DNA from: an uncultured Gemmatimonadaceae bacterium
GTDB taxonomy: Bacteria; Gemmatimonadota; Gemmatimonadetes; Gemmatimonadales; Gemmatimonadaceae
Reading direction: 5' to 3'
Assembly (NCBI GenBank): GCA_963829055.1
Contig: CAWHHI010000016.1
Coordinates: 768,001 to 832,000, forward strand
Length of the DNA stretch: 64,000 nucleotides
Numbering within the stretch: the stretch's first letter is position 1; every line of letters begins with the position of its first letter. Below the pieces are notes generated by a model. The model worked only from the letters and a program-made list of their open reading frames with translations. It made no database searches and had not been told where the DNA came from. Positions 966 to 61,413 of this stretch are shown one piece after another. Made by a program: the position numbers and the translations under genes.

Positions 966-2735
966 CTAGCTGGCGAGCAAGCCGTCGCCCAGGAAGGACG
1001 CGTCGCCAAACGCAGCGCGCAGACGTCCGGCCAACTGCCGCTCGGCACCGGCCGCATTGTCCGAAGCGAGCGCCGCTTCTGCCGCCTCCACTGCCAATTC
1101 CACGCTGATACCGCGGACAATGTGCTTGACCAGCGGCACCGCCCGTGGACCGACGCTGAGTTGCCGGACGCCCAGACCGATGAGGGCAAAGACCATCACC
1201 GGTTGAGACGCCATCTCGCCGCATACAGCAACTTCCAGCCCAGCGGCTCGGCCTACTTCGACCGTCCGCTTTACCAGGCGGAGAACGGCCGGATGGAGGG
1301 GGGTGAATCGAGCCGCGAGATTCACGTTCCCCCGGTCCACGGCGAGGGTGTACTGGACGAGATCGTTCGTTCCGATGCTGAAGAACGCGACCTCGCGGGC
1401 CAGCACGTCGGCTCCCATCGCGGCGGCAGGCGTCTCGACCATCACGCCCAGGGGCAGGTCGCGTCGGAATGGAACGCCACGCGCCTCGAGGTCCGCCGCC
1501 GCCTCGTCCAGCAGGTGACGCGCTTCCCGGACCTCATCGATGGTCACGATGAGCGGAAGCATGATGCGAACATCGCCGTGCAGTCCGGCACGCAGCAGCG
1601 CCCGAAGCTGGGTCTTGAACATCTCCGATTCGTCGAGACACATGCGGATCGCGCGCCAGCCGAGGAACGGATTCGCCTCGTGGGGAAATCCACCGGCCGG
1701 CAGCTTGTCGCCGCCAATGTCGAAGGTACGAATGACGACCGGCTGTCCGCCGAACGCTTCCACGACGCGGCGGTACGCACGGTATTGCTCTTCCTCGTCA
1801 GGCATTGTCGTCCTGCCGACGACGAGAAACTCCGTTCGCATGAGGCCAACGCCTTCTGCGCCACTCGTAGCCGCCAGCGTCGACTCCTCGGGCAGGTCGA
1901 CGTTCGCGCGCAGCGTTATGCGAACGCCATCAGTCGTCACCGGTTCTGCCGAGAGCAGCAATCGAAGCTCTGCTTCGTCGCGTGCCTCGCGCTCGGCGCG
2001 ATGCTGGAAGACCGCGACCTCGGCGTCGGTTGGGTTGATCACCAGCGTGCCGGTGGACCCGTCGAGGACGGCGTTCTCGCCTCCCGTTAGGCGGCTGATC
2101 GCATCGCGCAGACCCACCACCGCAGGCAATCCGAGCGACCGCGCGAGAATCGCGACGTGCGATGTGCGCGTGCCCGCGTCGGTCGCCAGCCCCGCGATCG
2201 CATCGCGATCCAACTGCACCGTGAGGCTGGGCGTCAGATCGTGCGTTACGAGAATCGCCTTCGCGCCCTTCGGCACGTCCACCGGATCGTGATCCGGGAG
2301 GCCGAGCAGGATCGACAGCACGCGGATGTGGACGTCGGTGAGATCGCCGACGCGCTCGCGCATCATGGGCGACGCGTGATGCGCGAACCGCGCGCGCCAC
2401 TCGTGCAGCACGACGTCGAACGCTTTCTCAGCCGCGAGATTCTGCCGGATGTACGACCGGACCTGATTCCCGAGATCGTGATCGTCGAGAATGGAGATCT
2501 GCACGTCGAAGATGGCTGCCTCTTCGGGGCCGGCGTGACTCGCCGCTCTGTCGCGAACCTGGGCCAGTCGTTCTTTCGCGCGCTCGACGGCCTCGTCGAA
2601 GCGCGCGATCTCCGCCGGAATCGCGTCGTCGGGGATGATGCGCGTGGCGACGTCGGGCACCTCCCAGCGGAGGAGGTGCACGGGCCCCACGACAATGCCC
2701 GGCGAGGCGGGAATTCCGGTGAGTGCGCGATCCAC
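966..2735 (-). CDS. ptsI: PTS enzyme I (phosphoenolpyruvate-protein phosphotransferase)
   Basis: 589 aa; [13 protein letters not shown] phospho-His motif, [37 protein letters not shown]. Confidence 0.97.
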
Positions 2736-2737
2736 GG

Positions 2738-3004
2738 TCAGGACTCGCCGAATTTGCTCTCGATCAGCTTCGCGATCGCGGACACCGCGTCCTCCGCATC
2801 TGTCCCATCAGCCCGGAGCAGCAGCTGTGAACCATACTCTGCCGCGAGCATCATGACACCCATGATGCTCTTGCCGTTCACCTCGAGGTCGTCGCGCACG
2901 ATGGTGATGTCACTCCGGAATCGCGCCGCGGCTTTCACGATTTCGGCGGCCGGACGAGCGTGGAGACCGTTCCTGTTGATGACCTGCACGGAGCGTTCAA
3001 CCAT
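2738..3004 (-). CDS. ptsH: HPr phosphocarrier protein
   Basis: 88 aa from ATG at 3004 (the tail of the 496-aa track ORF); GLHARPAA (His15) and NGKSIMGVMML (Ser46). Confidence 0.96.
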   Translation of the reverse strand: MVERSVQVINRNGLHARPAAEIVKAAARFRSDITIVRDDLEVNGKSIMGVMMLAAEYGSQLLLRADGTDAEDAVSAIAKLIESKFGES

Positions 3005-3763
3005 CAGCGAACCACCGAGTAGAGGACGAACAACGCGAGCAGGCCGATGGCGATCTTCCACCCCTCGGCGCGCCCGTGCAAGCGAGCGAGCACGAATCCC
3101 CCAAGTGCGACGGCACCAAGCACGATCCCGAACAGCGCGCGCCCTGGACCGATGACCTGATCCAGCGCGAGCGGCAGCGCGATCCCCCCAATGAGCGCGG
3201 CGGCCTGCGCGAGGTGTCTGGGTCCGCGTCGTAGCACCGGCCCACCGAGCGCCGACGCCACGCGCATCCCGTGATCGAGACCGGCGCTCAACCCCCATGC
3301 TCTCAGCGCGATGTGCCCCGCGTTGTAGATGCCGAGAAACACGAAGATCACGCCGCCGGTGCCAACGCCAAACCCGAACGCGGCCAGCGCTGCCAGCGAG
3401 CACGCCGGGAGCCACGCCGCCCAGACGAGTTGGTCCCCAACGCTTCCCAGCGGACCGCACAGCGCGGTGCGAAAACGATCGATGCGCGCTGGGGCTTCGC
3501 CATCGAGCTCGGCGCGCGCGAGCGCTCCGACCGCGACGGACGCCATGTACGGATGCGCGTTGAAGTACTGGCTCTGGCGCGCGAGCGCGGCGCGGTACGC
3601 GGGCCCCTCCTGGCCACCCGGCAGCAGCCGCAACGCCGGCTCGACACAGAAGCCGATGCCGTTGCCGAGCAGTGTCTCGTAGTTCCACGCGCCCTGGATG
3701 GCGAGCAGCCTGACGAACATCGCGAGGCGCGTCCGCACCGGGATCTCGACGTGCGTCTTTCAC
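3004..3763 (-). CDS. PTS mannose/fructose/sorbose family IID subunit
   Basis: WNYETL...FNAHPY...GPLGSVGD motifs. The likely GTG start at 3763 overlaps the IIC stop and is in frame only if one base of the A-run near 3758-3760 is removed; the track ORF starts at 3738. Confidence 0.88.
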
Positions 3764-4446
3764 TGAGCTGCCAACAGTGCGAGCCCAACGCCGATGCCAC
3801 CGAGCAGCAACCACCGCGCGGCCGGAGCGGCATGCACCACTTTCCAAACGGCACCGCCGGCGACGCTGGCGGCGACGCCGACGACGACGGCGCGCGAGAC
3901 GCGCGGGTCCGACCCCCACGCCCCGAGCACCCACGTCTGCATCGGGGTGAACAGGGCGAGGATGATCGCCGTGAGCGCGCCGCCTCGCACGAGATCCGCC
4001 GTGAGGCCGAACACCTGAAGCCCCTCGACGACGCGCTTGGATCCGCTGGCGACAGCGTCGTGGCGCGCGCGAGCAAACCGCGCGTTCAACTTCCGAAGCT
4101 GTACCATCGACCACCCTCCGATCCACGCGCATACGAGACCCGCGAGCACCGCGATCGTCAGGGCACCGGGACTCGCATCCCCGTGCATCGCGAACAGTCC
4201 GCCTCCGACGACGGCCGCCGACCCCCACTCCGGGTAGCGCGATGCGCCGAACGGCAGCGTCTCCAGCGCGAACATTTCGAGCGTCGCGCCGACCAGCAGG
4301 CCGCGTGCGGGGTCGCCTAACAACGTCGCCGCCGCCGTCGCCGCCACGAGCGGACGCGATATCATGGCCTGCGGGAAGCTCACCACGTCGAGCCCGAGCA
4401 CGGCACCGAGAACCGCGAGCGGCAGCAACTGCACGAAGTCGGTCAT
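3760..4446 (-). CDS. PTS mannose family IIC subunit
   Basis: Hydrophobic 228 aa; QAMISRPLV...GLLVGATLE motif; sits between IIB and IID. Confidence 0.88.
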   Translation of the reverse strand: MTDFVQLLPLAVLGAVLGLDVVSFPQAMISRPLVAATAAATLLGDPARGLLVGATLEMFALETLPFGASRYPEWGSAAVVGGGLFAMHGDASPGALTIAVLAGLVCAWIGGWSMVQLRKLNARFARARHDAVASGSKRVVEGLQVFGLTADLVRGGALTAIILALFTPMQTWVLGAWGSDPRVSRAVVVGVAASVAGGAVWKVVHAAPAARWLLLGGIGVGLALLAAQ

Positions 4447-4934
4447 CGGTTGCCTTCTCCGGACAGCACTTCGTTCAGCGCCAGCGGCCGTGCGGCAGGC
4501 ACGTCCTGCGCGCTCACGTCCACGCCGCGCGCTGCAAGCGAGCGGAGTGCCTGCTCCTCGTCAGGCGCGAGGAACACGTAGCGGAGTCGCTGAGTCCGAC
4601 CGATCCGATGATGGATGCCACCGAGGTTCACGCGCGGAATCGCGCCGGTGAGGTCGATCAACCGCGCCATCGTTTCGATGTCGCCCGTCAGCAGCGCGCC
4701 GCGACGTTCGTCGCGCTGATAGCCATTGAGCTTCTCGGCGGCCTCGTCGACCGTGTGGAAGTGCACATCCATTTCAGGTGGCACGCCCATGCGATACAGC
4801 TCCTGCTCCCATTCGCTGCTCGCGACCTCATCGTCGACGAGCACGATGAACGTGAGGTCGAGTGGCTGCCCCCAGCCGACGACGACTTGTCCGTGAATGA
4901 GGCGGTCATCGATGCGAAAGAGCTCAATGGCCAC
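4443..4934 (-). CDS. PTS mannose/sorbose family IIB subunit
   Basis: RIDDRLIHGQVVVGW signature, VNLGG. Confidence 0.93.
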   Translation of the reverse strand: MAIELFRIDDRLIHGQVVVGWGQPLDLTFIVLVDDEVASSEWEQELYRMGVPPEMDVHFHTVDEAAEKLNGYQRDERRGALLTGDIETMARLIDLTGAIPRVNLGGIHHRIGRTQRLRYVFLAPDEEQALRSLAARGVDVSAQDVPAARPLALNEVLSGEGNR

Positions 4935-5340
4935 CCGTCGATCCCCCTGTCACGACGAGGGCGGCGCGTCCTTTGTCCGCGGCGTGTCGGGCAGCTTCAC
5001 CCGCGGGCACGTCGGTGTGGAAGACGAAATCGAGCAGCGTCGCGAGATTGGTTCCGGTGACGAGTACCATGTTTGGACGCTCGCGTTGGAGCCGACGCGC
5101 CGCCATGGTGCAGCTGCCCGCGGGCAGGTCAGTGAAGATGACCTCGACAGCGCCCGCTTCCACCTGCTCACGCATCGCGCGCTCGACATCAGCGGCGCTC
5201 ATGTCTCGATTGGAGAGCGCGAGAAACGCCTCGCCGCGGCCAGTGATCTGGCCAACCGCCGACAGGAGACCGGCAGCGAAGTCGCCGTGCCCGGCGATGA
5301 GCGCGCGGACTTCCGCGTCCGCATCACCCGGCTCACTCAT
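4924..5340 (-). CDS. PTS mannose family IIA subunit
   Basis: LIAGHGDFA phospho-His motif, IFTDLPAGS, VTGTNLATLL. Confidence 0.88.
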   Translation of the reverse strand: MSEPGDADAEVRALIAGHGDFAAGLLSAVGQITGRGEAFLALSNRDMSAADVERAMREQVEAGAVEVIFTDLPAGSCTMAARRLQRERPNMVLVTGTNLATLLDFVFHTDVPAGEAARHAADKGRAALVVTGGSTGGH

Positions 5341-6302
5341 CGTCTTCCACCAGGTACTGCCTAACGTCCGCCTGCTCGCGCATGCGCCCGATGAGCCGTT
5401 CGTTGAACGCCTCCGCCGGGTTCACGCCGCTGTAGCGCAGCAGATGGTTCATCGCGATGACTTCGGCGATCACGGTGATGTTCTTTCCAGGATTCAGGAA
5501 CACCTTGATCTTCGGCAGCTCGACACCGAGGATCGTGGTCGTCTCGGTATCGAGACCGGTGCGGTCGACGACGGCATCCTGGTCCCACTCCTCCAGGTGA
5601 ACCACCACCTCCATGCGCTTCTGCTGGCGCACGGCCCGGATGCCGAAGATCGCGGGAATGTCGATGAGCCCAACGCCGCGAATTTCCATGAAGTGGCGCT
5701 GGAGCTCGTGCCCTCGTCCGATCAGGAGGTCGTTGCCGCGGCGCGTCATGATCACGAGATCGTCAGCCACGAGACGGTGCCCACGCTCCACCAGATCGAG
5801 CACGCATTCGGACTTGCCGATACCGCTCTTTCCGGTGAAGAAGAGGCCGACGCCGAAGACATCCGCCAGCGAGCCGTGGAGCGTCGTGGAGGGCGCGAAC
5901 AGGTCGTCGAGAATCGGCTTCGTGCGCCGATAAAACTCACCGGTCTTGAGCGGCGTGCGGAACACGGGCACGCCATGCTCGCTCGCGATCGCCTGCGAAT
6001 CCCGACGGCAGCTCCTGCGCTTTCGTGACGAACACGCACGGCAGCTCGAGCGCGAAGAACATTCGAAGCACGTGCTCGCGGGCCTCCCGCGCCAGCGAGC
6101 CGAGATACTGGATCTCCGTCTCGCCGAACGCCTGAAGCCGATGCGCAGGAAACCGATCGAGGTAGCCCGCCAGCACGAGTCCGGGGCTCGACACGTCGGC
6201 GCTCGTCACGAGGCGATCGAGTCCGCCGGTGCCGATCTGTTCCAGCGGGAGCCCGCGCTTCAGGCGCGCGACGAGGGCGCCGACGGTGAGCGGTCGATTC
6301 AC
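5333..6302 (-). CDS. hprK: HPr(Ser) kinase/phosphorylase, split by a frameshift near 5996
   Basis: N-terminal half in ORF 5937..6302 (SPGLVLAGY, FGETE). C-terminal half in ORF 5333..5971 (GKSGIGKSE Walker A, HRLVADD, MEIRGVG). One indel joins the halves. Confidence 0.93.
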
Positions 6303-6610
6303 GCGCGCTCGATCTTCTTATTGCGCGTCTTTGGCGTCCGCTTGAGCTGGCGGGCCTGCGCTTCCAGTCGGCCGATGGCGAAACCGAGCGCCGGTCCGAA
6401 AAAACGGGCGCTGCCCTCCGCCACCATCGCGCGTCGTCGCGGCGCGTGCAACACGATCTCGACGCGGCGCGTCGGTCCGTCCTCCTCGAAACGAACGACG
6501 GCCTTCACGGCGCGGCTCAGACGAGCGGCGAGCCGCATGACCGCGATGCGGGCACGCTCACGCATGCGATCGGACACCTGCGCATGGTGCGACTGGAACA
6601 GAATCTCCAC
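6299..6610 (-). CDS. HPF/RaiA family ribosome hibernation-like protein
   Basis: 103 aa, basic; lies directly upstream of hprK as hpf usually does; VSDRMRERA...LEAQ pattern. Family assignment is divergent. Confidence 0.65.
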   Translation of the reverse strand: MEILFQSHHAQVSDRMRERARIAVMRLAARLSRAVKAVVRFEEDGPTRRVEIVLHAPRRRAMVAEGSARFFGPALGFAIGRLEAQARQLKRTPKTRNKKIERA

Positions 6611-6624
6611 TGTATTCCTCCTAC

Positions 6625-7719
6625 TTACGACGCGTCTGCCAGATGAGACTCGGTCTCGAGGGTCGCACGCTCCCAGGTAAACGACTCGGCGAAGGTACGG
6701 GCGTTGGCACCGAGCGTTCGCACCAGCTCAGGCGAGCCGGCGATACGCCGGAGGGCCGCCGCCATTGCAGCGGTATCGCCATGTGGCACAAGGAAGCCTG
6801 TGTCCCCGTCGCGTACCGATTCACGGATCCCCGGCGAGCTCGAGGCGACGACCGGCGTACCGCAGGCTGCCGCCTCGAGATTCGTGATCCCCCACCCTTC
6901 CTTCGGCGACGCGAACGCGAGCGCCCACGAGCGTCGAAGAAGCGAGACCTTGTCCTGCTCACTGATACGCCCAAGAAACCTTGCCCGGTCGCCGAGGTCA
7001 AGCGATCCGGCGAGGCGCTCGAGCTGCGGCCGATAGTCGCCCGCACCAGCGATTTCGAGCGTCGCGTCCGGGATTGCCGCCTCGGCGAACGAGCGAATCA
7101 CGAGGTCGACTCCCTTGTACTTCTTGAGGCGGCCGAGGTACGCGAACGACGGGGACGCCGAGCGGACCTCGGCCGCCGGCGTGTAGTGGCGGGTGTCGAT
7201 CCCCGGGTAGATCACACGGACGAGGCGACGCGGGATGCCGCGCTGCACGAGATCGTCGGCCGTGCTCTCGCTGATGGCGTGAAAGGGGACGCCGCGATAC
7301 TCCGACGCGAGTGGCCGCTCCGATAGCCACACAACCGCCGCAACAGGCGCTGGAAGCTCCTCGAAGGCGGTGCCCCCGAACAGGTGTGGAACGAGGGCGA
7401 CGACGCGCCGTGCACCCCAGCGCGGCGTGAAAAGGGGCACCTTGTTCACGTCCTCGACGAGGACGTCGTGCGGCCGGTCCGGAAAGAGACGGCGGTAAGC
7501 CCCACGCGCGAGCAGGGGCCACGTAAGCCGCGTCCCGATGCGGATGACGTCGATGCCGTCGAGCGTGGCACGCGGCGGACATCCTGGCCAGCCCCCGCAG
7601 AGCAGCGTGACCTCGTGCCCGCGTGCGGCCAATCGTCCAAAAATCTCGTGAAGGTGGATCTCAGCCCCGCCAGCCTGCGGGTTTTCACGGTCCTGCCAGT
7701 TAACAAGCAGAATGTTCAC
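6625..7719 (-). CDS. Glycosyltransferase family 4 protein
   Basis: GTG at 7719: MNILLVNWQDRENPQAGGAE; GRLKKYKG and EGWGITNLEA (EX7E) motifs. Confidence 0.9.
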   Translation of the reverse strand: MNILLVNWQDRENPQAGGAEIHLHEIFGRLAARGHEVTLLCGGWPGCPPRATLDGIDVIRIGTRLTWPLLARGAYRRLFPDRPHDVLVEDVNKVPLFTPRWGARRVVALVPHLFGGTAFEELPAPVAAVVWLSERPLASEYRGVPFHAISESTADDLVQRGIPRRLVRVIYPGIDTRHYTPAAEVRSASPSFAYLGRLKKYKGVDLVIRSFAEAAIPDATLEIAGAGDYRPQLERLAGSLDLGDRARFLGRISEQDKVSLLRRSWALAFASPKEGWGITNLEAAACGTPVVASSSPGIRESVRDGDTGFLVPHGDTAAMAAALRRIAGSPELVRTLGANARTFAESFTWERATLETESHLADAS

Positions 7720-7732
7720 GGACAGGAGTTGG

Positions 7733-7805
7733 GGCGGATGGCGGACGGCGGACGGCGGATGGCGGGGCGACAACGCAACGCCGTTTGGCCGCCGTCCGCC
7801 ATCCG
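7733..7805. repeat. Heptamer tandem repeat GGCGGAY x4.7 with an inverted partial copy
   Basis: GGCGGAT GGCGGAC GGCGGAC GGCGGAT GGCGG at 7733-7765; CCGCCGTCCGCCATCCG at 7789-7805; intergenic. Confidence 0.85.
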
Positions 7806-7822
7806 AGGGCCGCCTTCCGGGC

Positions 7823-8242
7823 TCACAAGCGTCCCATCTTCCGAGCCAGCGCGTCCAGCACGCCGTTCACGAACTTCGCGCTCTGCGGGCTGCCATAGCG
7901 CTCCGCGAGGCGAATCGCTTCCTGCAGCACCACACGCGGCGGCGTCTCGCCGATCGAGAGCTCGGCCGCGGCAAGGCGAAGGACCGAGCGCTCGATAGCG
8001 CCCAGGCGCTCCATGCGCCAATTCTCCGTCACGTCCGCGAGATTGCGGTCGATCTCCGCACGACGGCCGGCGATGACGTGAATCAGCACCGCCGCCAGGC
8101 GACGCTCATCCGCCGAGACCGCGAGGTCGTCCCAGACGCGTTCCGAGACTCGCTCGAGGTTCTGCTGCCCACGCATGTCCCACGCGTAGAGCGCCTGCAA
8201 GGCCCGCGAGCGGGCGTGGGTTTCAGTCCTCCGTGGTGCCAT
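7823..8242 (-). CDS. nusB: Transcription antitermination factor NusB
   Basis: ARSRALQALY, NWRMERLGAIERSVLRLA, KFVNGVLD; follows ribH. Confidence 0.95.
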   Translation of the reverse strand: MAPRRTETHARSRALQALYAWDMRGQQNLERVSERVWDDLAVSADERRLAAVLIHVIAGRRAEIDRNLADVTENWRMERLGAIERSVLRLAAAELSIGETPPRVVLQEAIRLAERYGSPQSAKFVNGVLDALARKMGRL

Positions 8243-8702
8243 CGATCTGATCGAAGAGATCCGCCATCTCGAGCGCCGCCAACGCGGCGTCCCACCCCTT
8301 GTTTCCGTGCTCGCCGCCAGCGCGCGCCTCGGCCTGCGCCATCGTGTCGCACGTGAGGAGCCCGAACGCGATAGGGACGTCGAAGTCGGCGCTCGCGGTC
8401 GCGAGACCACGGGACGCTTCACCGGCCACGAAGTCGAAATGCGGTGTGTCGCCGCGAATGACCGCGCCGAGCGCGACAACCGCCTCGTAGCGTTCCGTCG
8501 CCGCGGCGTGCCGCGCGGCTCCTGGTAGTTCCCACGCGCCCGGCACCCAGAAGACGTCGACGTCGTCGAACGCCACGCCGTGCTTGATGAGTGCGTCCAT
8601 CGCACCGTCCAACAGCCGCTGCGTGATCATTTCGTTGAACCGGCTGACGAGGACCGCGCAACGACGACCCTGACCGCGCGGCGATCCAGTGAACTCTGGC
8701 AT
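8223..8702 (-). CDS. ribH: 6,7-dimethyl-8-ribityllumazine synthase
   Basis: SRFNE, VPGAWELP, LGAVIRGDTPHF, GNKG. Confidence 0.97.
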   Translation of the reverse strand: MPEFTGSPRGQGRRCAVLVSRFNEMITQRLLDGAMDALIKHGVAFDDVDVFWVPGAWELPGAARHAAATERYEAVVALGAVIRGDTPHFDFVAGEASRGLATASADFDVPIAFGLLTCDTMAQAEARAGGEHGNKGWDAALAALEMADLFDQIDGTTED

Positions 8703-9911
8703 TTACAGCGCGCGCAGGTGGCCGAGCTTCTGCACTTTCGTCGCCAGGTAGCTGGCGTTTTCCTCGGTGGTCGGCGCTTCGATGCGCACGCGATCCACGA
8801 CGCTCAGCCCGTAGCCCTCGAGGCCCACCAGCTTCTTCGGATTGTTCGTCAGCACACGAATGGATTTGAGACCGAGATCGAGCAGGATCTGCGCGCCGAT
8901 GCCGTAGTTCCGGAGATCAGGCTTGAAGCCTAACGCCTCATTGGCCTCGACGGTGTCGTGTCCGCCATCCTGGAGCTCGTACGCCTTGAGCTTGTTGAGG
9001 AGGCCGATGCCGCGCCCTTCCTGATCGAGGTACACGACGACCCCGCGGCCCTCGCGGGCGATCATCTCCATCGCCGTGTGCAGCTGCCAGCCGCAGTCAC
9101 AGCGCATCGAGTGAAACACGTCGCCCGTTAGGCACTTGGAGTGCATGCGCACGAGCACGGACTCGCCGTCGTCGACGTCGCCGTACACGAGCGCCACGTG
9201 CTCGCGCGTGTCCACGTCGTTGCGATAGCCGACGATGCGCCAGTCCTTGCCCGCGATGTCCGTCGGCAGGCGCGCTTCCGCGACGCGATGAACGAGCCGC
9301 TCGTTCTCGAGCCGGTGCGCGACGAGCTGCGCCACCGTGACGAACGTGAGGCCGTGGTCGGCGGCGAAGCGCGCGAGATCATCGCGCTTCATCGTCGTGC
9401 CGTCCTCATTCAGGATCTCGCAGATGACACCCGCGGGATAGAGCCCGGCGAGTCGCGCCAGGTCGACCGCCGCCTCGGTGTGTCCGACGCGCTGCAGCAC
9501 GCCGCCGTGCCGTGCGCGCAACGGGTGCACGTGCCCGGGACGCCTCAGATCACCGCGAACCGTGGCCGGATCGACCGCAACCTGGATCGTTCTCGCGCGG
9601 TCGGCGGCACTGATGCCGGTCGTCACGCCGAAGCGCGGCGCCGCATTGATGCTCACCGTGAACGCGGTGCGGAACGCGTCGGTATTCTCGTCGCCCTGCG
9701 GCGGAAGTCCGAGCTGATCGACGCGCTCGCCCGTGAGCGCGAGACAGATCATGCCCTTCGCCTTGAGCATGAAGTTGATGATCGCGGGCGTGACGAGCTG
9801 CGCCGCGCAGATCAGATCACCTTCGTTCTCGCGGTCTTCGTCGTCCGCGACGACGACGAGCTTGCCGGCGCGAATGTCCGCTATTGCCTGAGGGATAGTA
9901 CCGAATTTCAT
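8703..9911 (-). CDS. ribBA: Bifunctional DHBP synthase / GTP cyclohydrolase II
   Basis: From ATG at 9911: [42 protein letters not shown]. Confidence 0.96.
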
Positions 9912-10583
9912 GGTCGAGGGGACTGGGGACTCGGGACTGGGGACTCGGCTGCGTCGCGTTGCATTCGCTTCCCTGTTCCCGGTTCCCTGTTCCCGTCCGT
10001 AAGGACGGATCAACTGCCTAACAAACTTACCTATCACATTGCCTTCCACGTGCACGGCGTCGCCGGTCGTCAAATCGCCGAGCGTCGTATGCCGCAGTGT
10101 GTACTCGATCAACGACAGCTGGACCACGTTCGGTTGCGGGATCGCGTTCACCGTGAGGCTCACGCCATCGACCGTGATGGAACCGTGCGGCACCAGCAGT
10201 TCTCCGATCTCAACGGGAACCGCCACGTCGACGAGCACGGCATCCTCGAACGGCTCGACGCCGCGAACGGTTCCCACGCCGTCGACGTGACCCTGCACGA
10301 TGTGGCCGCCGAGTCGATCGCCGGCACGGAGCGCTCGCTCGAGGTTCACGCGCTTGCCTTCTGCCCAGCCGCCGATCGCCGTTCGCCCCAATGTTGTAAC
10401 GACAGCAGCGACAGAAAACCGGCCATCCGCACGATCGCGAACCGTCAGGCACGCGCCATTCACGGCAATGCTCTCGCCGTCGACGAGGTCGTCATAGCGT
10501 GAGCGAATCACGAACTCGCGACCGGCTGACGTGTCCGCGACGCGGTCGATGATGCCAACATCGTCGACGAGCCCGGTGAACAT
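9908..10583 (-). CDS. ribE: Riboflavin synthase alpha chain (no stop before ribBA as sequenced)
   Basis: MFTGLV N-terminus, SIAVNGACLTV, GGHIVQGHVDG, GSITVDGVSLTV; the 3' boundary is uncertain. Confidence 0.94.
9919..9994. repeat. Opposed heptamer arrays (GGGACTS)x4 and (TTCCCKG)x3.7
   Basis: Read directly at 9919-9946 and 9969-9994, between ribE and ribBA. Confidence 0.85.
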
Positions 10584-11683
10584 CAGATTGGATGCAGAGC
10601 GTACACGGTCATGAGATCGTCGTCCAACTCGACCCTGCGCACGATCGGAAATCGCCGTGCGCCCGACGCCGCCATTGTAGGGGCGTTCTCGAACCCCGGC
10701 AGCGAACCGGCGCCAAGCAGGACTGGAGCCTGAAAGATAATCAGCCGATCGACGAGGTTGGCACCGAGCAGCGCGCCCGTGATCATCGCGCCGCCCTCGA
10801 CGAGTAACGAGCGGATCCCGCGCTGGCGGAGCGTGCGCATCGCTTCGTCGAGCGATGTGGCCGCAACCACGTCGACGCCGAGGGCCATGAGCCGACGCGC
10901 GTGCGCGAGGTCGACCGATTCCGCGACCACGATTGTCGGCACTTCGCTCGCCGTGCGAGCCAGCGCGCTCGCGAGCGGCAGTTGGCCGCGCCGCGTGAAC
11001 ACCACGCGGGCAGGCGGCACGCGCGGCGGCGGCGCATCGCGAACGGTCAGCTCCGGGTTGTCCGCGCGCACGGTGCCGAGTCCAACGCCGACCGCGTCGC
11101 TGCCCGCCCGTAGTCGGTGGACCTCCCGCCGCGCTTTCTTGGCGGTGAGCCAGGCCGGTCCGCGACCGGCGTCCGCGATGGCACCGTCGATCGACAGCGC
11201 GAGCTTCACGCTCACCCACGGCCGGTCGGACGTTACCGCATGGAAGAACGGCGCGTTCAGCTCGCGCGCCGCCGCGACCTCGATATCGAACGCGACGTCG
11301 ATCCCGGCGGCGCGCAATCGCTCGGCCCCACCCGACGCGGGTGCTGTTGGATCGCGTGTCGCGGCCACGACGCGCGAGACTCCGGCAGCGATGAGCGCGT
11401 CGACGCACGGAGGCGTCTTGCCGAAGTGATTGCAGGGTTCGAGCGACACGTAGACTGTCGCCCCACGGGCGCGATCGCCCGCGGCGCGGAGCGCTTCGAC
11501 TTCCGCGTGCGCTTCGCCATAACGCGAGTGATACCCCTCGCCCACGACTACATCGTCCTTCACGACAACGGCGCCGACCATCGGGTTCGGCGCCGTCTGC
11601 CCCCAGCCTTTTTTCGCGAGCGTAAGCGCGCGCCGCACCATGGCGGCGTCGCGCTCATCAGCACGCCGCGAGGCGTAGCTCAT
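10583..11683 (-). CDS. ribD: Bifunctional riboflavin deaminase/reductase RibD
   Basis: PNPMVGAVVV, HAEVEAL, LEPCNHFGKTPPC, KLALSIDG, LLVEGG. Confidence 0.96.
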   Translation of the reverse strand: MSYASRRADERDAAMVRRALTLAKKGWGQTAPNPMVGAVVVKDDVVVGEGYHSRYGEAHAEVEALRAAGDRARGATVYVSLEPCNHFGKTPPCVDALIAAGVSRVVAATRDPTAPASGGAERLRAAGIDVAFDIEVAAARELNAPFFHAVTSDRPWVSVKLALSIDGAIADAGRGPAWLTAKKARREVHRLRAGSDAVGVGLGTVRADNPELTVRDAPPPRVPPARVVFTRRGQLPLASALARTASEVPTIVVAESVDLAHARRLMALGVDVVAATSLDEAMRTLRQRGIRSLLVEGGAMITGALLGANLVDRLIIFQAPVLLGAGSLPGFENAPTMAASGARRFPIVRRVELDDDLMTVYALHPI

Positions 11684-11697
11684 CCGGAGTGGGTCAT

Positions 11698-12743
11698 TCA
11701 GTTTCCGATACGAAGTCCGACGGACGCATAGGTGAGCGCGTCGTCGGCACGCTTGCCCGAGAAGCTGTTGTACGTCTCGATCGTGCCACCCGACACGCGC
11801 CCGAACTCGGCCGCGAACTTGAGGAACGGGAAGTTGAGCGACACGTCGGCGAACATGTTCGACCGCGTCACCTTCTGCGTCAGACCGTACGGGCCGCCGT
11901 CGATGCTGAAGTTGCCCTCGTTCACGCGCACTGTTCCCGTTGCACGCGAATCGTACTGGTCTTTCCCGGCGCCGGCCGCGAGGCCGAGGAAGCCAAGCGA
12001 CTTGCCAACGACGCCACGCCATGCGGACGTCTGCACGCCGATGTCCGAGATGCGTGATGTTGTCGTCGCCGGATATCGCCGAGATGCCCGTCGTCGGGAG
12101 GTCACGCCGGAGGTACGTCACCGAAACCGACGGCGTCGCGACGGACTCGGTGAGGAGTCCGAGGCGCCCGCCGAAGCCGAGCTTGAGCGAGCCGCCGGGG
12201 ACGGAGAGCGCGACCTTGCTGCGCGTGAACTCCGGCACGTACGTGGCACTCACGAGCGCATCGAGCGCGAACGCGTGAGTGACGCCCATCGGGACGCCAC
12301 CGAACACTCCCAGCGCGCCCTCGACGGTCGGCAGCCCGACCACCTGGTCGTTCACATCATAGTCGCTCCGGACCGCCCCAGTGATCGCGGCGTCCATGTT
12401 CTCCACCTGCGGCACGCGTCCGCGAATGCCGTTCCCGCGCACGCCGATCGAGAAGTGGCCAAGGCCGCCTAACGCGCCGCCGGTGCCGAGCGTCGCACTG
12501 CCGCCGACGAGCCCGATGCCGAGCTGCGGCGTCATGAACGCGAAGATGTCGACCGCCTTCTGACAGGCGTCCTGTACCGCGCGATCAGGCAGCGTCAGCC
12601 CGGGGCAGCGCGGGTCGATGCCCTGCGCGTGGAGCGCGGCCGGGACCGAGAGTGCGACCGCGAGACCGGAGAGCGCAACAACCGTACGGAGCGGGGAGCT
12701 CGGTGAAACCTTCGAATGCGATCGACTTCGAGTGCGACTTCAT
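11698..12743 (-). CDS. Secreted or outer-membrane hypothetical protein (frameshifts near 12700 and 12060)
   Basis: Signal peptide ...ALSVPAALHAQ, then a Gly/aromatic-rich beta-strand-like body; C-terminus in ORF 11698..12105 ending YASVGLRIGN; GAGGA upstream of ATG 12743. Confidence 0.6.
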
Positions 12744-12755
12744 GCCGGTGGATCC

Positions 12756-14729: not shown

Positions 14730-14749
14730 GATTTCGGGGGAAAGAGCAA

Positions 14750-14847
14750 GCTGGTGGCTGGGTGGTCGTGCTGGTGGCTGGGTGACGCTGGGTGCAGCTG
14801 GTCACTCAGCATCACCCAGCAACAAGCACCCACACCCAGCAACAAGC
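14750..14847. repeat. Dispersed GCTGGGTG-rich repeat (partial copy plus inverted partial copy)
   Basis: GCTGGTGGCTGGGTGGTCGTGCTGGTGGCTGGGTGACGCT matches the copies at 37174, 40612 (reverse complement) and 53900. Confidence 0.8.
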
Positions 14848-47545: not shown

Positions 47546-47575
47546 GACGTGAACCTACGCGTTGCGATCGCCGCG

Positions 47576-48955: not shown

Positions 48956-48991
48956 AGTGAGGCACGATGATAGGCGGACGGATGATCGCTC

Positions 48992-50098
48992 TCAAGAGCG
49001 AATCTGCTTGAGATCAACCGCGGTAAGTATACGCCGGGCAATGTCCTCAGCTGCCCGAGGTCGTGCTCTTTCTCGGGCGGCCGTGGCGAGCGTTTCGAGG
49101 GTGCCGGGGCTAGTAGCGAGTTCGCGAACGAGTCCATCGAGTCGTTCAACGCTGAGCTCATCCTGTGGCAGCCATCGTGCTGCGCCGACGGCTGCGAGTG
49201 CTTTTGCATTCACCGTCTGATGGTCGGCGGCCGCGGTCGGAAGAGGCACCAGGATGGGCGGGATGCCCCACGCCGCCAGCTCCGCCGTCGTCATCGCACC
49301 CGAACGCGTAACGGCCATGTCCGAGGCCGCGTACGCATCCGCGATGGGAGCGAGGTATGGACGCACTCGCACGTTGGCGGACTCGCGAGCTGAATGGCGA
49401 TCGAAGTGCGCACGGCCGGTCGCCCAGATGAGCTGGACGCCGTCCGGAATTCCGCGCGCTACCCACGCATCGATGACTCCGTTGAGCGCCGCCGAGCCCT
49501 GGCTTCCGCCGAACACGAGCACGACTGTCGAATCGTCGCGGAGGCCCCAGGCGGCCCGAGCAGGACCCTTCGGCGGCAACGGCGATGGAGGAGGTGCGAT
49601 CGGGTTACCAGTGAACACGGCGCGGGAGCGCGCGCGTTCGGGGAGGAGCGCTCCGCCCTCCGGAAAGCCGAGATAGATCTCGCGTGCATAACGACTGAAG
49701 GACCGCACCGTTCGTCCGGGAAAACTGTTCTGTTCCTGGATGAACAGCGGGATGTCGCGACGCGCGGCAAACGCCATGGTGGCGCCCGCGGCGTAGCCGC
49801 CGGTACCAACCACGAAGCGAGGCGAGCTTTCGCGCGCGAGCGCCGCGATCCGCCCCCACGCCGACACGAGGCCGCGAGCGGTGCGCCAATTCTGCCACGG
49901 CTTCGTGCGATACAGCGGGTGGAGATCGAGAAGCTCGTGCTGGAACTCGGTCGTCGGGAGAACGTCGCGCTCTATTCCCCGGCGGGCGCCGATGAACAGT
50001 GGATCGAGCCGCGGCTCGAGCGCGACCAGCGCACGTGCGATAGCCAGCGCAGGGTAGAGATGACCACCGGTTCCTCCACCCGTGACGAAGATCCTCAC
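48992..50098 (-). CDS. murG: Lipid II GlcNAc transferase MurG
   Basis: TGGGTGGHLYPA, GTGGY, EQN, TGNP, GGSQGS, RSGA, HQTVNA. Confidence 0.97.
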   Translation of the reverse strand: MRIFVTGGGTGGHLYPALAIARALVALEPRLDPLFIGARRGIERDVLPTTEFQHELLDLHPLYRTKPWQNWRTARGLVSAWGRIAALARESSPRFVVGTGGYAAGATMAFAARRDIPLFIQEQNSFPGRTVRSFSRYAREIYLGFPEGGALLPERARSRAVFTGNPIAPPPSPLPPKGPARAAWGLRDDSTVVLVFGGSQGSAALNGVIDAWVARGIPDGVQLIWATGRAHFDRHSARESANVRVRPYLAPIADAYAASDMAVTRSGAMTTAELAAWGIPPILVPLPTAAADHQTVNAKALAAVGAARWLPQDELSVERLDGLVRELATSPGTLETLATAARERARPRAAEDIARRILTAVDLKQIRS

Positions 50099-51267
50099 CA
50101 GGCAGGTGCTGCCAGCGGATCCGTAGCGGCGACGCCGTGCACGCGCTCCTTTGTGCTGCCGATGTTCACGAGCATGCCCGTCATGAACAGCGAGAGGACG
50201 AGGTTCGAGCGCCCATAGGAGATGAATGGGAGCGTGAGCCCCGTCGTTGGGAGGAGCCCAACCACCACTCCTATATGAAGGAAGGCGGTGGTGACGACGG
50301 TGACCGTGAGCCCGATGGCAACGAGCTGCAGAAACGGTGACCGGGCCGACCGCGCGATGCGCAGGCCCAGCCATGCGTAGACGGCGAACGCGAGCGTGAG
50401 CAGCGCGAGACCGAAGAATCCCCACTCCTCGCCAATGTTGCTGCCAATGAAGTCGTTGTAGCCGAACGGCACGAAGCCAAGCTGCTGGCGCCCTTCCCCG
50501 AAGCCACGCCCGAAGAGCCCACCAGACCCGACGGCGATCAGCGACTGCCACAACTGATACTTCGCCGACGGCGGCGGGCTTCCCGGATCGAGGAACGTGA
50601 CCAGCCGCAACAGCACATACTGGAGTCGTTCCATCTCGTGCCAGAGCACCGGGATGCCGATGACGCCGAGCACCACGAAGTGGCCGATGCGCACGCCGCC
50701 AGCGAACAACACGATGCCGGCGACGAGCGTGTACATGATGGCGACGGAGAGATCGGGCTCGAGCACGACGAGCAAGTCGAGCACGCCGATGACCACGAGG
50801 AATGGCAGCAGCCCCTTCGTTAGGCGACGCATCTGGTCACCCTTCTTGACGAGCAGCATCGCCGTCCAGACGATCACCGACAGCTTCCCGATTTCCGACG
50901 GCTGTAGCGAGGTACCGAACAGGAATCGACGCGAACCGTTGATGCGTGGCGCGATCGACGTCGTGAACGGCAGGACGATGATCACGAGAAGCGCGATGGT
51001 CACGGTCATGAACGGCCACGCCCACTTGTTCCAGCGTTCCGCGTCCATCTTGGCGCCGACCGCGAACACCACGGCGCCGATCACCAGTCCGGTCAGCTGA
51101 CGCGTGAGGTAATGCGTGCTGCCCAGATTCTGCTCGACCGCGACGATGGCGCTCGCACTGTAGAGCACCGCAAGCCCGAACGCGAGCAACACCGACGTGA
51201 GCAGCATGAGCGCGCGCGCTTCCACGCCCATGCGCCAACGATCGCGCGTTTGTGCAACGGCAGTCAC
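50095..51267 (-). CDS. ftsW: SEDS family peptidoglycan polymerase FtsW
   Basis: Polytopic; NGSRR, QPSE, EPD, SGGLFG.G.G, PTTGLTLPFISYG. Confidence 0.95.
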   Translation of the reverse strand: MTAVAQTRDRWRMGVEARALMLLTSVLLAFGLAVLYSASAIVAVEQNLGSTHYLTRQLTGLVIGAVVFAVGAKMDAERWNKWAWPFMTVTIALLVIIVLPFTTSIAPRINGSRRFLFGTSLQPSEIGKLSVIVWTAMLLVKKGDQMRRLTKGLLPFLVVIGVLDLLVVLEPDLSVAIMYTLVAGIVLFAGGVRIGHFVVLGVIGIPVLWHEMERLQYVLLRLVTFLDPGSPPPSAKYQLWQSLIAVGSGGLFGRGFGEGRQQLGFVPFGYNDFIGSNIGEEWGFFGLALLTLAFAVYAWLGLRIARSARSPFLQLVAIGLTVTVVTTAFLHIGVVVGLLPTTGLTLPFISYGRSNLVLSLFMTGMLVNIGSTKERVHGVAATDPLAAPAW

Positions 51268-52742
51268 GACTTCCTGTCCTCCACAGCGCCGGCGAGTCGC
51301 TTGAACATCGTGCCGCGCTCCTCGTAGTTCTTGAACATGTCGAAGCTCGAGCAGGCCGGAGAGAGTAGCACGGCGTCGCCTGAAATCGCGAGTGCACGAG
51401 CCCGCTCGACGACCTCCTCGAACGACCGACCCATCTCTTCCGTTCGAACCACTGCCCCAATGTCCTTGACGATGATGGGCGCCGCTTCGCCGTATGCAAT
51501 GACAGCCTTCACGGTACGCCGCATCTCATCCGCGAGGCTGGCGTACGATTCACCCTTGTGACGCCCGCCGAGCAGCAGGATCGTCGGCCGCTGCATGCCG
51601 CGGAGCGCGACGAGGGTCGAGCCGACATTCGTCGCCTTCGAGTCGTTGATCCACTGCACACCGTCGTACTCGCCAGCGAGCTCGAGCCGATGCGGAAGTC
51701 CCTGAAAGCTCCGGAGAGAGTCGGCGAGTCGAGCGCGCGCGTCCGGCGTCTCGTGCGCCGGATCTGCGACCATCACTGACAGCAACGCGAACAGGGCGTT
51801 CGCCACGTTATGATCGCCGATCAGCGGAAGGTCCGCGCGCGCCGCGACCGGCTTGCCTAACACGACGAGCTGACCCTGCTCGCGATCGTACCACGCGCCG
51901 CCTTCACGACGCGTGAGCGACACGGGATACATGTCACCGCGCAGTGCTGCGCGCGCGGTAGTCACGCGCGCCGACGCGTCCTTCGCCGCGCGATCCGGTT
52001 GCACGCGTCGCGCGCCACGAGGCGGCGTCGGCGGGCGCCGCTCGGCGAGGCGCATGACGGAGTCTTCGTCTCCGTTGAGCACCCACTTGGAACGATCGGA
52101 CGCGTTGCGGAAGAGCAGCGCCTTGTCGGCGTAGTACTCGTCGACGCTTGCATACCGATCGAGGTGGTCAGCGCTGAGGTTCGTCACAACACCGACCACC
52201 GGATTGATGCTCGGTGTGTCGTGCAACTGGAACGACGATACTTCGAGCGAGACCCAGTCGGGACGTCGGTCGCGCAGTGCCACTTCGGACAACGGCATGC
52301 CAATGTTGCCCGCGGCGACCGCATCAAGCCCGAGCCCGCGCAGCAAATGCGCGGTCAGCGCGGTCACGGTCGATTTCCCGTTCGTCCCGGTGATTGCGAC
52401 GTAGCGCAGCGCGGGGATGGCGTGCAGCGCGACCTCGATCTCGCCAATGATCGGGAGGCCCGCCTCACGTGCGCGCTGCAGCGGAGCCGCGCTCGGAGGC
52501 ACGCCGGGGCTGGCCACCACCAGCGTCGCGCGCGCAACGCGCTCGACATCATGCGTGCCGACGTCGACTTCGACGCCGAGGGGTCTGAGCAAGGCGGCGC
52601 TCGTCTCGACGCCAGACCCGCTGCCGGCGTCGGATGCGTAAACGCGTGCGCCTTCCTTCGCCAGCAATGTGGAGACGGCAGTTCCGCTCTTACCGAGACC
52701 GATGACGGCGATCTCGCCGATGCGCCAGATGTCGGGAATCAC
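51264..52742 (-). CDS. murD: UDP-MurNAc-L-Ala--D-glutamate ligase
   Basis: [51 protein letters not shown]. Confidence 0.97.
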
Positions 52743-53881
52743 CGCAGCTTCAACGTCGTTAGGGCGAAAAACGCGCACAGGATGCCGAGAATCCAGAATC
52801 GTGTCACGACCTGAACCTCGTGCCACCCCTTCAGCTCGAAGTGATGATGCAAGGGCGCGCGCCGGAAGAGGCGGCGGGCCTTCGCGTCCTCCAGGCCATA
52901 ACGATATTTGCGGTACTTGAATACTGACCGCTGCAGGATCACGGACAGCGTCTCGGCCACGAACACTCCGCCGACGATCAGCAGCAGGAACTCCGACTTG
53001 AGCAGGATCGCGACGGCGCCGAGCGCGCCACCGAGCGCCAGTGATCCGGTATCGCCCATGAAGACTTCGGCCGGATGCGAGTTGTACCAGAGGAACCCGA
53101 CACACGCTCCGAACATCGCGGAGCAGAAAATAGTCAGCTCTCCAGCGTTTCGCAGATAGAAAATATTGAGGTACGCGCTCGTATCCACTCGGCCCATCAC
53201 GTACGCGAACACCGCGAACGTCACGGCGGCGATCGCCGCGAGACCCGCGGCGAGTCCATCGAGACCATCCGTGAGATTCACTGCGTTACTCGTGCCCGTG
53301 AGAATGAACGTGACGAACGCGACGTAGAGCCATCCGAGCCAGAGCGTCGCGGGCACGATCAGCATCCATTTATAGAACGGGAGCGTCGTGGACGCGCCCG
53401 GGAGAGTCGAGAGCGGATGCTGCCAGACATAGATGCCGAGCGCGATGCCAGCGCTGACCTGGCCAATGAGCTTGTAGCGCTCGACGAGCCCTTCGTTCTT
53501 CTTCCCTTCCCGCTTCTGCTTGAACTTGAGATAATCGTCGAGGAAACCGATGCCACCCATCCAGGCCATGACGAGCAGAGCGCATAACGCGTAGCGATTG
53601 TCGAGTCGCACCCAGAGCAACGTGGGCACGATCGTCGCCGCGAGGATGATGAGCCCGCCCATGGTGGGCGTGGAGCTCTTGACCTTGTGGGAATCCGGCG
53701 TGCCTTCGCGGACGACCTGATTCATCTGCAGGCGTCTCAGCGCGCGGACGATCATCGGACCGACGATGAACGCGACGAGCAGCGCCGTCACCGCCGCCGC
53801 GGCCGCGCGGAAGGAGATGTAGCGGACGATGCGAAACGCCGAGAAATACTTCGTCAGCGGGATGAGGAGGTAGTAAAGCAA
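52739..53881 (-). CDS. mraY: Phospho-MurNAc-pentapeptide transferase
   Basis: [38 protein letters not shown]. Confidence 0.97.
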
Positions 53882-60168: not shown

Positions 60169-60323
60169 TCGACCAGATCAAGCGCCAGATGCCTCCGTAG
60201 GGCCGGTAAGGCCGTGGCCGGTTTTTCGCGTACCTCGACAGCAATGACAACGGCAGATATAACGGCGGCATCGAGGTCGAGGTGGACATTTGCCCCTAAC
60301 GATAAGGTAGCCAACAAGACGCG

Positions 60324-61320
60324 ATGAATGACCGAAGGCGCGGCCAACGCTCGAAGATTGCGGAGCGGCGAACGACCGCGATACGACCCGGGGCACAAGC
60401 CCGGTCGCGACGACACATTGCGATCGTGGTGCACGGTGCGCGTGCGGAATTTCCCGGCCTGCGTCATCTCGTCGAGTGGATGCGAGCGAAGGGTCACAGG
60501 GTGCGTGCTCGGGTGACGTGGGAGTCGGGCGACGGGGCGATGTTCGCGCGCGAGGCCATCGAGGCGGGCGCGGACACCGTTGTCGCCTGCGGCGGCGACG
60601 GCATGGTCAACGAGGTCGTGAATGGACTCGAGGGCACTGACGTCGGACTGGGAATCATTCCGGCCGGAACCGCAAACGATTTCGCGCGACAGGTCGGGAT
60701 CCCCGACGACCCGAGCGCCGCGATGGACATCGTGCTCCGACGAAAGCCGGTGATCATCGATACCGCCGCGATGAACGGCCGCCGATTTCTGAATGTCTCG
60801 TCGGGTGGTATCGGTGCCGAAGCAACCGCCGAGACACCGGCGGACGCGAAGGCGTCGCTCGGCGCCGTCGCGTACTTCATCTCGGGGTTGCGCAAGCTCG
60901 CGGGCTTCGAGCCACGGCGGGCGCTGTTCGAGGCGCCGGGGTTTCGCGTCGAGATGGACTTCCTCCTGTTCGCGGTTGGCAACGCGCGCGCGACAGGTGG
61001 TGGCACGCTGGTCACGCCACGCGCGAGCGTGCGCGACGGCTTGCTCGACGTCTGCATCATTGGCGCGATGCCGAGGAAGGAGTTCGCGACGCTGGTGCTG
61101 CGAGTAAAGCGTGGTGAGCATCTCGAGGCGGACGGTGTTCGCTACATGCAGGTACCGTGGTTTCAGATCACGTCAGACGAACCGATGACGGTGAACGTCG
61201 ATGGCGAGCCCGCAGAGGTGCGCGCAGGTGCGATATGAATCGCGGCCGCGGGATCTGTTGATTCACCTCCCGCGCCTGCCTGGGCATCGTCGCTCGGTCG
61301 AGCGTGATGTGCCTGGTTGA
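60324..61320 (+). CDS. YegS/BmrU (DAGK-like) lipid kinase; probable frameshift near 61224
   Basis: ACGGDGMVNEVVNG, PAGTANDFAR, FLN, DGLLDV, NVDGE; the shifted frame continues QVRYESRPRDLLIHLP to TGA at 61320. Confidence 0.9.
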
Positions 61321-61353
61321 GAGTCGGGGTGCTGATCCGAAGGTCGTTGATGA

Positions 61354-61390
61354 CGAAGCGCCCGCCGTCGAAAAGACGGCGGGCGCTTCG
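61354..61390. terminator. Perfect 16-bp hairpin between convergent genes
   Basis: CGAAGCGCCCGCCGTC-GAAAA-GACGGCGGGCGCTTCG; no long U-tract. Confidence 0.65.
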
Positions 61391-61413
61391 CGTTAGGTCC
61401 AATGTCGTGTGGG

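Follow-up and report, generated by a model that had tools for sequence, protein, structure and literature searches.

YGTTAKGY, a self-avoiding octamer iterated in scattered Gemmatimonadales and in some phages: a candidate DNA-uptake-type self tag

Introduction

Hyper-abundant genome words with a known reader have been recognized in only a few bacterial groups. The closest described systems are the DNA uptake sequences (DUS) of the Neisseriaceae and the uptake signal sequences (USS) of the Pasteurellaceae, which are short non-palindromic words found about once per kb, on both strands and in all reading frames. Here we characterize a further word, the octamer YGTTAKGY, in a stretch of 64,000 nucleotides from an uncultured Gemmatimonadaceae bacterium (assembly GCA_963829055.1, contig CAWHHI010000016.1, positions 768,001 to 832,000; henceforth the window), where it was first noticed as an iterated hexamer, and in related genomes, plasmids and phages. 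Literature searches among open-access papers returned no description of it.

The word has all of the above features in common with DUS and USS, as well as raised encoded tripeptides, lineage dialects, perhaps absence from foreign DNA (the site-free segments here look foreign but may be chimeras), presence in some phages and accompanying competence genes. It differs in being another 8-bp word without AT-rich flanks, in the depletion of its inverted pairs and in not being core-enriched; further, DUS and USS are family-wide, whereas this word is patchy within families and genera. HIP1 of cyanobacteria (GCGATCGC) is likewise a hyper-abundant coding octamer under selection, with a debated function and a proposed role as an uptake watermark (PMC5861425, PMC13756078). 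HIP1 is palindromic and is described there as having a tens-of-kb periodicity, whereas the present word is non-palindromic, shows exclusion at short range (<300 bp), has no cognate methylase that we could find and does not figure in the methylome list of the cultured strain KBS708. The R' and R'' boxes of integron attC sites in Gemmatimonadales cassette arrays are letter-identical to CGTTAGGC and TGTTAGGC, whereas the word occurs in core genes as single boxes that lack a hairpin partner, have arisen by substitution and show no link to integrases or cassettes. Finally, Chi sites and the Chi-rich lambdoid phages present an over-represented octamer copied by some phages; unlike Chi, the word has no replichore polarity, an orientation-free redundancy and an even spread in phages, and AddAB-like genes do not follow it.

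The word in the window and the source genome

In our labels G000 is the source genome (7.78 Mb, 86% complete, 20 contigs), other G numbers are relatives and L numbers are separate loci or contigs; the window is G000:C16:768001-832000. The original prediction, made from the letters of the window, had counted about 42 GTTAGG/CCTAAC sites. Our count is 42, at the same coordinates, with 24 GTTAGG and 18 CCTAAC on the plus strand; YGTTAGG accounts for 40 and GTTAGGC for 28 of them, as had been claimed, and near variants are indeed rare (ATTAGG, CTTAGG and TTTAGG once each, GTTAGC three times). Its five codon settings are also correct (four are listed below; the fifth, at 9127, is TGC-CTA-ACG), and the genes of the window are ordinary core genes (phosphotransferase system, riboflavin, purM, argS, comEC, recG and the dcw cluster). 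We refine the word to the 8-mer YGTTAKGY, with the hexamer core GTTAGG/CCTAAC and CGTTAGGC as its best form.

GTTAGG on the plus strand, first 12: 2086, 9127, 12954, 13633, 16932, 18558, 21747, 23504, 25309, 25906, 27158, 28279
GTTAGG on the plus strand, last 12: 33127, 36447, 39453, 41666, 41740, 44181, 48432, 50819, 52758, 56223, 57241, 61392 (ends 61397)
CCTAAC on the plus strand, first 9: 4316, 5360, 8929, 10017, 12468, 14894, 15464, 16088, 17641
CCTAAC on the plus strand, last 9: 36911, 37362, 37626, 38373, 51856, 54227, 55034, 55896, 60295
Weaker form CGTTATGC/GCATAACG, 8 copies within 1914..53589: 1914, 20172, 20602, 21966, 24854, 48118, 49686, 53582
2086..2091, plus strand, site in ptsI (gene on the minus strand): CGC-CTA-ACG, Arg-Leu-Thr
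5360..5365, minus strand, site in hprK: GTT-AGG, Val-Arg
8929..8934, minus strand, site in ribBA: GCG-TTA-GGC, Ala-Leu-Gly, the commonest setting genome-wide
12954..12959, plus strand, site in purM (gene on the minus strand): CCT-AAC, Pro-Asn
50819..50824, plus strand, site in ftsW: Arg-Leu-Thr

G000 contains 7,103 GTTAGG sites, 5,004 of them CGTTAGGC, i.e. one per 1.1 kb or 0.9/kb, at 7.5-12.2 per 10 kb across all 20 contigs. GTTAGG is its top-ranked hexamer under an order-2 Markov model (observed/expected, O/E, 13.9), and 80% of all TTAG tetramers fall within the word; maximal-order Markov tests hide it, since most occurrences of its sub-words belong to the word. Genes were called by ourselves (6,860 genes, 72% coverage, in an assembly with frameshifts), and 4,996 high-confidence ones were subjected to a protein-preserving shuffle of synonymous codons. 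Against this null, sense GTTAGG was observed 2,195 times versus 124 (O/E 17.7), sense CCTAAC 1,842 times versus 268 (O/E 6.9) and CGTTAGGC 1,570 times versus 27 (O/E 59). The enrichment above a codon-aware null and beyond the window on which the original prediction depended is therefore present, at 7- to 59-fold and on every contig. No less than 1,728 of the 2,417 TTA codons (72%) sit in the word, CCT-AAC is chosen in 1,161 of 2,954 Pro-Asn pairs, and the word overlaps the stop codon of about 405 genes.

With the codons outside the word as null, the enrichment of variants is graded: 99-fold for CGTTAGGC, 65 for CGTTAGGT, 34 for TGTTAGGC, 17 for CGTTATGC (387 copies versus 23 in G000 coding DNA), 14 for CGTTAGGG, 2.7 for CGTCAGGC and at most 1.6 for the remaining core changes. 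The encoded tripeptides are raised as well: PN[ADEGV] have O/E 1.6-2.05 versus 1.03-1.29 for reversed controls and ALG 1.40 versus 0.90, the effect being weak for TLG, PLG and RLT. Thus, proteins have been bent along with codons.

Systematic base-calling error, which had been named as a way in which the pattern could be spurious, was checked, and the word is not an artefact. Its density is equal in six other assemblies of the genus, it is also dense on the plasmids of a PacBio-finished isolate (KBS708), and frameshift breakpoints do not cluster at it (4 of 69, background 4.7%), with no long-read error signature. Contigs from four independent runs span several sites in window 1-20000 at 98-99% identity, with no difference within a site among those listed (40 of 608).

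Sites avoid one another over a few hundred base pairs

The original prediction had overlooked the self-avoiding spacing of the sites, as well as the attC end-box identity and the patchy spread across the order. In G000 the pair correlation is 0.33, 0.54, 0.80 and 0.94 at 0-100, 100-200, 200-300 and 300-400 bp and 1.0 thereafter, whereas seven control hexamers gave 0.9-2.1 in the first 100-bp bin and no comparable depletion. Near the main form, CGTTATGC is likewise depleted (0.43, 0.62 and 0.72 in successive 100-bp bins), and all four orientation classes of pairs are equally depleted under 100 bp. Another site lies within 100 bp for 3.0% of G000 sites, and 0.9% of the inter-site gaps exceed 5 kb. 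The same repulsion is seen in G014 (0.34, 0.57, 0.96), on a KBS708 plasmid (13 pairs under 300 bp versus 36 expected) and in G033 (11 pairs under 500 bp versus 25 expected).

The avoidance is equally apparent in how opportunities for writing the word are used. From <50 bp to 600-1000 bp away from another site, use rises from 11/319 to 366/864 for xLG, from 11/62 to 251/354 for PNx and from 4/226 to 164/594 for xLT; overall, a synonymous opportunity <100 bp from a site is used ~5 times less often, with recovery by 300-500 bp, alike for same, convergent and divergent orientations and across most gene borders. When the neighbouring site lies outside the gene, relative use is 0.16, 0.52, 0.69 and 0.90, with eight site-free segments left out of this comparison. 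A logistic model of 38,665 opportunities gave slopes of -1.68 within the same gene, -1.73 for co-oriented neighbouring genes, and -1.7 and -2.75 for unannotated flanks. This orientation-free short-range repulsion suggests that a single site, whichever its orientation, is enough to serve a few hundred bases.

Phyletic distribution, turnover and foreign segments

We scored a genome as positive if it contained CGTTAGGC at 50 per Mb or more. By this measure 19 of 60 relatives are positive, namely 16/36 in the family and 3/12 and 0/12 in two sister families, with a maximum of 1,250 CGTTAGGC/Mb in G014. In a wider set of 250 genomes from across the phylum, positives comprise 7/53 members of the family, 4/113 members of another family (f2) and 0/81 genomes outside the order. 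The f2 positives all belong to one genus (g78), of which a fifth genome stands at 46/Mb. Among the genomes of these counts are four unpublished ones (G013, G100, G138 and G214), each of them negative and used for no other claim. The trait is thus patchy and, among the genomes counted, confined to the order Gemmatimonadales. In a phylogeny of the dcw proteins, one large clade is made up of positives, as is a second that lies nested among negatives, and further positives appear as several lone tips, one of them in another family.

Individual sites turn over: G000 and any congener at 78-79% DNA identity have 2 of 8 sites in common, whereas four closer congeners share nearly all. Identical codons have been converted in distant lineages, often by way of two changes (CTC to TTA). 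Of 28 ftsW orthologues that bear the motif, 7, belonging to separate lineages, match the site at 50819 codon for codon; others encode an identical protein sequence without it. Dialects can also be discerned, with 70-79% C after the core in G000, G014 and G033, and 99% C and no CGTTATGC in KBS708.

The longest stretches of G000 without a site, three of 32-48 kb near contig ends, hold foreign-looking genes and may be chimeras.

Site-free stretches of G000, first three: C6:6854-55038, C11:1-44055, C6:591809-623330
Site-free stretches of G000, next three: C16:450463-461724, C3:424867-445048, C4:804933-820719

Separately, the dcw regions of some word-negative loci show a local excess of other rare palindromes, possibly other iterated words: AGTACT in L084, L074 and L139 (9 in 21 kb) and ACTAGT in L065, which is G022 (5 in 20 kb).

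The word in plasmids and phages

Gemmatirosa kalamazoonensis KBS708, a cultured type strain, has 778 CGTTAGGC versus 20 of the reversed control on plasmid 1 and 39 GTTAGG in 50 kb of plasmid 2. Pattern scans of IMG/VR, with loci chosen for two or three copies and ~400 loci of at least 3 kb screened, recovered at least four phage contigs with dispersed enrichment in both orientations. These are L296 (a siphovirus head-tail region; 43 sites versus 3 control in 28.5 kb), L423 (29 versus 3 in 7.8 kb, or 3.7/kb), L549 (a siphovirus contig of 52.5% GC with a TGTTAGGY dialect; 54 versus 7 in 11.7 kb) and, weakest, L415 (34 versus 23 in 54.9 kb). Sites are evenly spaced in L296 (coefficient of variation, CV, 0.52-0.54, p<1e-4) and in L423 (CV 0.58, p<0.001), the latter having no gaps <90 bp versus 8 expected and none >752 bp. 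Their relatives are nearly free of the word: the six closest terminase relatives of L296 have 0-2 sites, and 78 viral loci related to L423 have 0.12 sites/kb. Two other viral loci were set aside as lacking the dispersed pattern, L687 having short palindromic operators and L447 being a cassette array.

Judging by protein similarity, L296 and L423 may infect Gemmatimonadales: capsid relatives of L296 (36-43% identity) occur in 5/301 genomes of the order, in loci with 0-1 sites, and a protein relative of L423 (45%) in 1/331 genomes. A host with the L549 dialect was not found among 300 Gemmatimonadota genomes, so that a reader may exist outside this phylum; one metagenome scan gave mostly tandem repeats. 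No integrase scored over the cut-off in the four phage records (12-62% complete), and when five positive genomes were searched for a prophage terminase, the yield was a single 3-kb contig free of the word.

A DNA-uptake-type tag or an intracellular one

The word is an orientation-free double-stranded signal, with a cost in codons and amino acids, a diminishing return within ~300 bp, repeated gain and loss, and dialects; a protein presumably reads it. We lean, tentatively, towards a DNA-uptake-type self tag of which one copy per short fragment suffices. Under this interpretation, a sequence-specific protein within the natural-transformation machinery, as for DUS and USS, would read YGTTAKGY as a double-stranded tag, one copy per few hundred bases being enough. 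Fragments bearing it, perhaps of ~300-500 bp, would be taken up and recombined more often, and the word would thereby be driven into stops, spacers and whichever codons tolerate it; on a short fragment that already has one copy, another would add little. Phages may have gained the word while resident in positive hosts.

Several precedents favour such a tag. USS and DUS are spaced at ~1 kb (reported in PMC7811141 and PMC2397512), near the 0.9/kb seen here, and raise the encoded tripeptides (reported in PMC2817400). Two USS within 100 bp are described as giving no gain in uptake, and 23% of USS as lying <100 bp from another (PMC7811141). Temperate phages of Pasteurellaceae are reported to accumulate USS up to the host level (PMC6776037), so that carriage by phages fits an uptake tag. 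G000 also has a competence set, with ComEC, DprA, a ComEA-type helix-hairpin-helix match and a full type IV pilus operon. As for the original prediction, its DNA-level signal stands as frame-independent, non-polar and lineage-specific; of the options it offered, uptake appears to fit best, a protein-binding site of another kind may yet apply, and a methylation-driven motif is disfavoured.

A number of observations weigh against an uptake tag. No receptor was found: ComEC (60/61), PilM (61/65) and DprA (5/5) do not separate positives from negatives, and among 41 loci no pilus-operon protein (operon proteins only) is specific to positives, the variation following phylogeny. Positives are interspersed with negatives within families and in one case within a genus (g57), and most negative genomes have no replacement word in the 10-21 kb examined of each. 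Redundancy extends over ~300 bp, less than the 0.6-1.7 kb of the conversion tracts described in Neisseria (PMC2397512). Repulsion is weaker across convergent genes (slope -0.68 +/- 0.36; divergent cases were too few), and a transcription-unit component may therefore contribute. Close inverted pairs, the terminator hallmark of DUS and USS, are depleted, and occupancy, a proxy for core enrichment, is 0.89 on core-rich C16, 0.78 in the window and 1.14 on C20. As neither core enrichment nor inverted-pair terminators are seen, we do not file the word as a member of DUS/USS. Lastly, the phage densities of 3.7/kb and 4.6/kb exceed that of the densest host sampled (2.0/kb), making drift in a host an unlikely source; they fit a direct benefit to the phage better.

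The competence genes of the window, to which the original prediction pointed, are context only:

20330..22429, minus strand: comEC, DNA import channel
22575..22910, minus strand: ComFB-like gene, a weak match (E 1e-10) under the family cut-off

They are no evidence for uptake, because ComEC is common to positive and negative relatives. The correlation with gene families that had been proposed did not materialize either: methylase, pilus operon, ComEC, DprA, integrase and nuclease all fail to track the word. An 800-aa protein behind pilQ first seemed linked (mean bits 614 versus 240), but groups by phylogeny. Label permutation, a test that ignores kinship, picked out isolated conservative columns in PilA and PilM.

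The best-surviving alternative, which we regard as possible though rather unlikely, is an intracellular self or licensing tag, bound by a cytoplasmic protein that would then protect, load onto or organize the nearby few hundred bases. Such a protein might be a nucleoid protein, an anti-silencer, or a repair or anti-degradation factor, and phages would copy the word if word-free DNA fared worse. Local redundancy regardless of orientation suits any reader with a reach of ~300 bp, and the patchy spread suits a single mobile gene. The even spacing in L296 and L423 amid nearly word-free relatives, the lack of an integrase over cut-off in the incomplete phage records and the host-like density on plasmids are all in line with it, and Chi-rich phages are a reported precedent for exploiting a host tag (PMC3784561, PMC12315714). 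Against it, about half of the chromosome lies >300 bp from any site; with a mean spacing of 1.1 kb and such long gaps (those >5 kb included), the word is no strict protective mark. Moreover, no candidate gene was found, and phage hosts and lifestyles are putative in records of this completeness.

Identity with integron attC ends

Returning to uptake, a more specific version arises from relatives with low counts, where the copies of the word are the attC ends of integron cassette arrays. In the arrays of G039, G037 and G057, R' is CGTTAGGC at the end and the start is the reverse complement of TGTTAGGC (R'' bottom strand), which are also the two forms that the chromosomal word favours most. The general attC end-box consensus is GTTRRRY. 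Integron integrases score over the cut-off in 38 of 61 genomes; integrons are reported from Gemmatimonadota (PMC8618304). One doubtful possibility is that an uptake reader of integron end boxes constitutes a third independent uptake-specificity system, fishing for both cassettes and kin DNA, gained and lost between genera and mimicked by phages above host density. If so, the rewriting of thousands of codons in scattered Gemmatimonadales would be a by-product of that reader.

Still more doubtful, and in our estimate improbable, is that a receptor tuned to attC, or an integrase-related protein, also binds single boxes, the chromosome being filled as a by-product. The letter identity of array ends with the best forms, the frequency of integrases in the order and the pyrimidine after the core, which matches GTTRRRY, would be accounted for. 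However, chromosomal sites are unpaired, with no general excess of R''...R' pairs 50-150 bp apart (by eye, ~8 attC-like elements among 99 candidate close pairs in G000), and differ by substitutions. Nor does the trait go with integrases or with the number of attC-like pairs, of which the negative G039 has ~40 and the positive G029 and G010 have 0-1. The variant spectra also differ, GTTAGAC, found in several attC sites of relatives, not being enriched in G000 (5 versus 11), and TCCGTTAGG, common in them, being scarce there (13). Further, the IntI-like protein of G000 appears to lack the usual catalytic Lys and His.

C20:208008-208985: IntI-like gene of G000, at the end of ~90 kb (C20:119-205 kb) with several scattered attC-like elements

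Similar IntI-like genes adjoin an intact intI in G001, G019 and G034. An integrase scar was rejected as the origin of the sites, which differ by substitutions rather than insertions and keep the protein frame; a lone integrase N-terminal domain or a degenerate IntI-like gene was rejected as reader, its distribution not matching the trait. The match to attC could be fortuitous, or it could stem from a reader adapted to the ends of cassettes.

Methylation

An orphan methyltransferase target, enriched via methylation-directed repair or methylation-dependent transformation on the model put forward for HIP1, is in our view highly improbable. In its favour, two methylases are reported to recognize HIP1, and methylated HIP1 to boost transformation (PMC13756078), and an Eco57I-like (type IIG) adenine methylase whose catalytic motifs are intact, with a SNF2 helicase gene behind it, is syntenic and occurs in 59 of the 61 Gemmatimonadales genomes.

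Eco57I-like methylase and SNF2 helicase: G000:C8:73557-76755; L158:7146-12595

This is a candidate order-wide orphan methylase, for which the ATGCAC motif of KBS708 might be guessed as the target. However, the gene is also present in negative genomes, and among 38 sequences neither a segment nor a column follows the trait. In G000 (86% complete) there was no match to PF01555, PF00145 or PF02384; PF00145 was matched in 1 of 5 positive genomes. The graded flank preferences suit a binding protein over an all-or-none methylase. Further, the published single-molecule real-time (SMRT) methylome of KBS708, which is positive on both large plasmids, lists RGATCY, ATGCAC and CCAGN7TCA only (PMC3974934). 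Adenine methylation of the word is therefore disfavoured, and 5-methylcytosine may remain. The latter, like non-methyl marks, can escape SMRT calling.

Polarity, terminus and Chi-like signals

The non-polarity noted in the original prediction is borne out: orientation is independent of GC skew (1,034 versus 930 in positive-skew windows; 1,324 versus 1,385 in negative-skew windows) and of replichore. On C16 a dif-like 28-mer at 560791 coincides with the GC-skew maximum, 20 kb from xerD, and a small leading-strand excess of GTTAGG tracks gene orientation. The window lies in the replichore to the right of the terminus. A Xer/dif half-site was rejected, the arms of the dif candidate being AT-rich, unlike the word. 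A Chi-like signal for an end-resection enzyme of the AddAB/RecBCD type is largely refuted and now barely credible: Chi is a reported precedent for phage mimicry and G000 has an AddAB-like pair, but polarity is lacking, pairs in opposite orientation repel as strongly as those in the same one, and the pair is patchy and unrelated to the trait, the PF12705 nuclease, in the five genomes tested, not being found in the densest one (G014, 92% complete) and being present in the negative G008.

Other features of the window and genome

A CcmL/EutN-type microcompartment vertex gene lies at window 29328-29974, among core genes near deoB. At 42491-44998, 8703-10583 and 56865-58884, respectively, the reading frame of ftsZ continues into an M23 peptidase, that of ribE continues into ribBA, and ftsI is split; with ~1 frameshift per 4 kb relative to relatives, assembly errors are suggested. 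G000 also has a separate repeat family with cores GAATGACA / CATTCCGA in 600-970 copies, which we take to be REP-like (repetitive extragenic palindromic).

General considerations

The 300-bp self-avoidance, the comparison with the methylome of a cultured strain, the carriage by phages and the list of excluded readers are set out here. In practical terms, the word flags foreign or chimeric segments, serving as a contamination marker, and may point to the hosts of phages. It sits in an abundant soil order, where its presence or absence between close lineages provides a natural experiment of a kind scarcely available with DUS/USS or HIP1. With this switching, a reach of ~300 bp, a cultured type strain with a methylome and copies in phages, the causes of word accumulation, be they drive, a function inside the cell or selection favouring kin DNA, become directly testable, with CGTTACGC as the comparison sequence set against CGTTAGGC in synthetic fragments.

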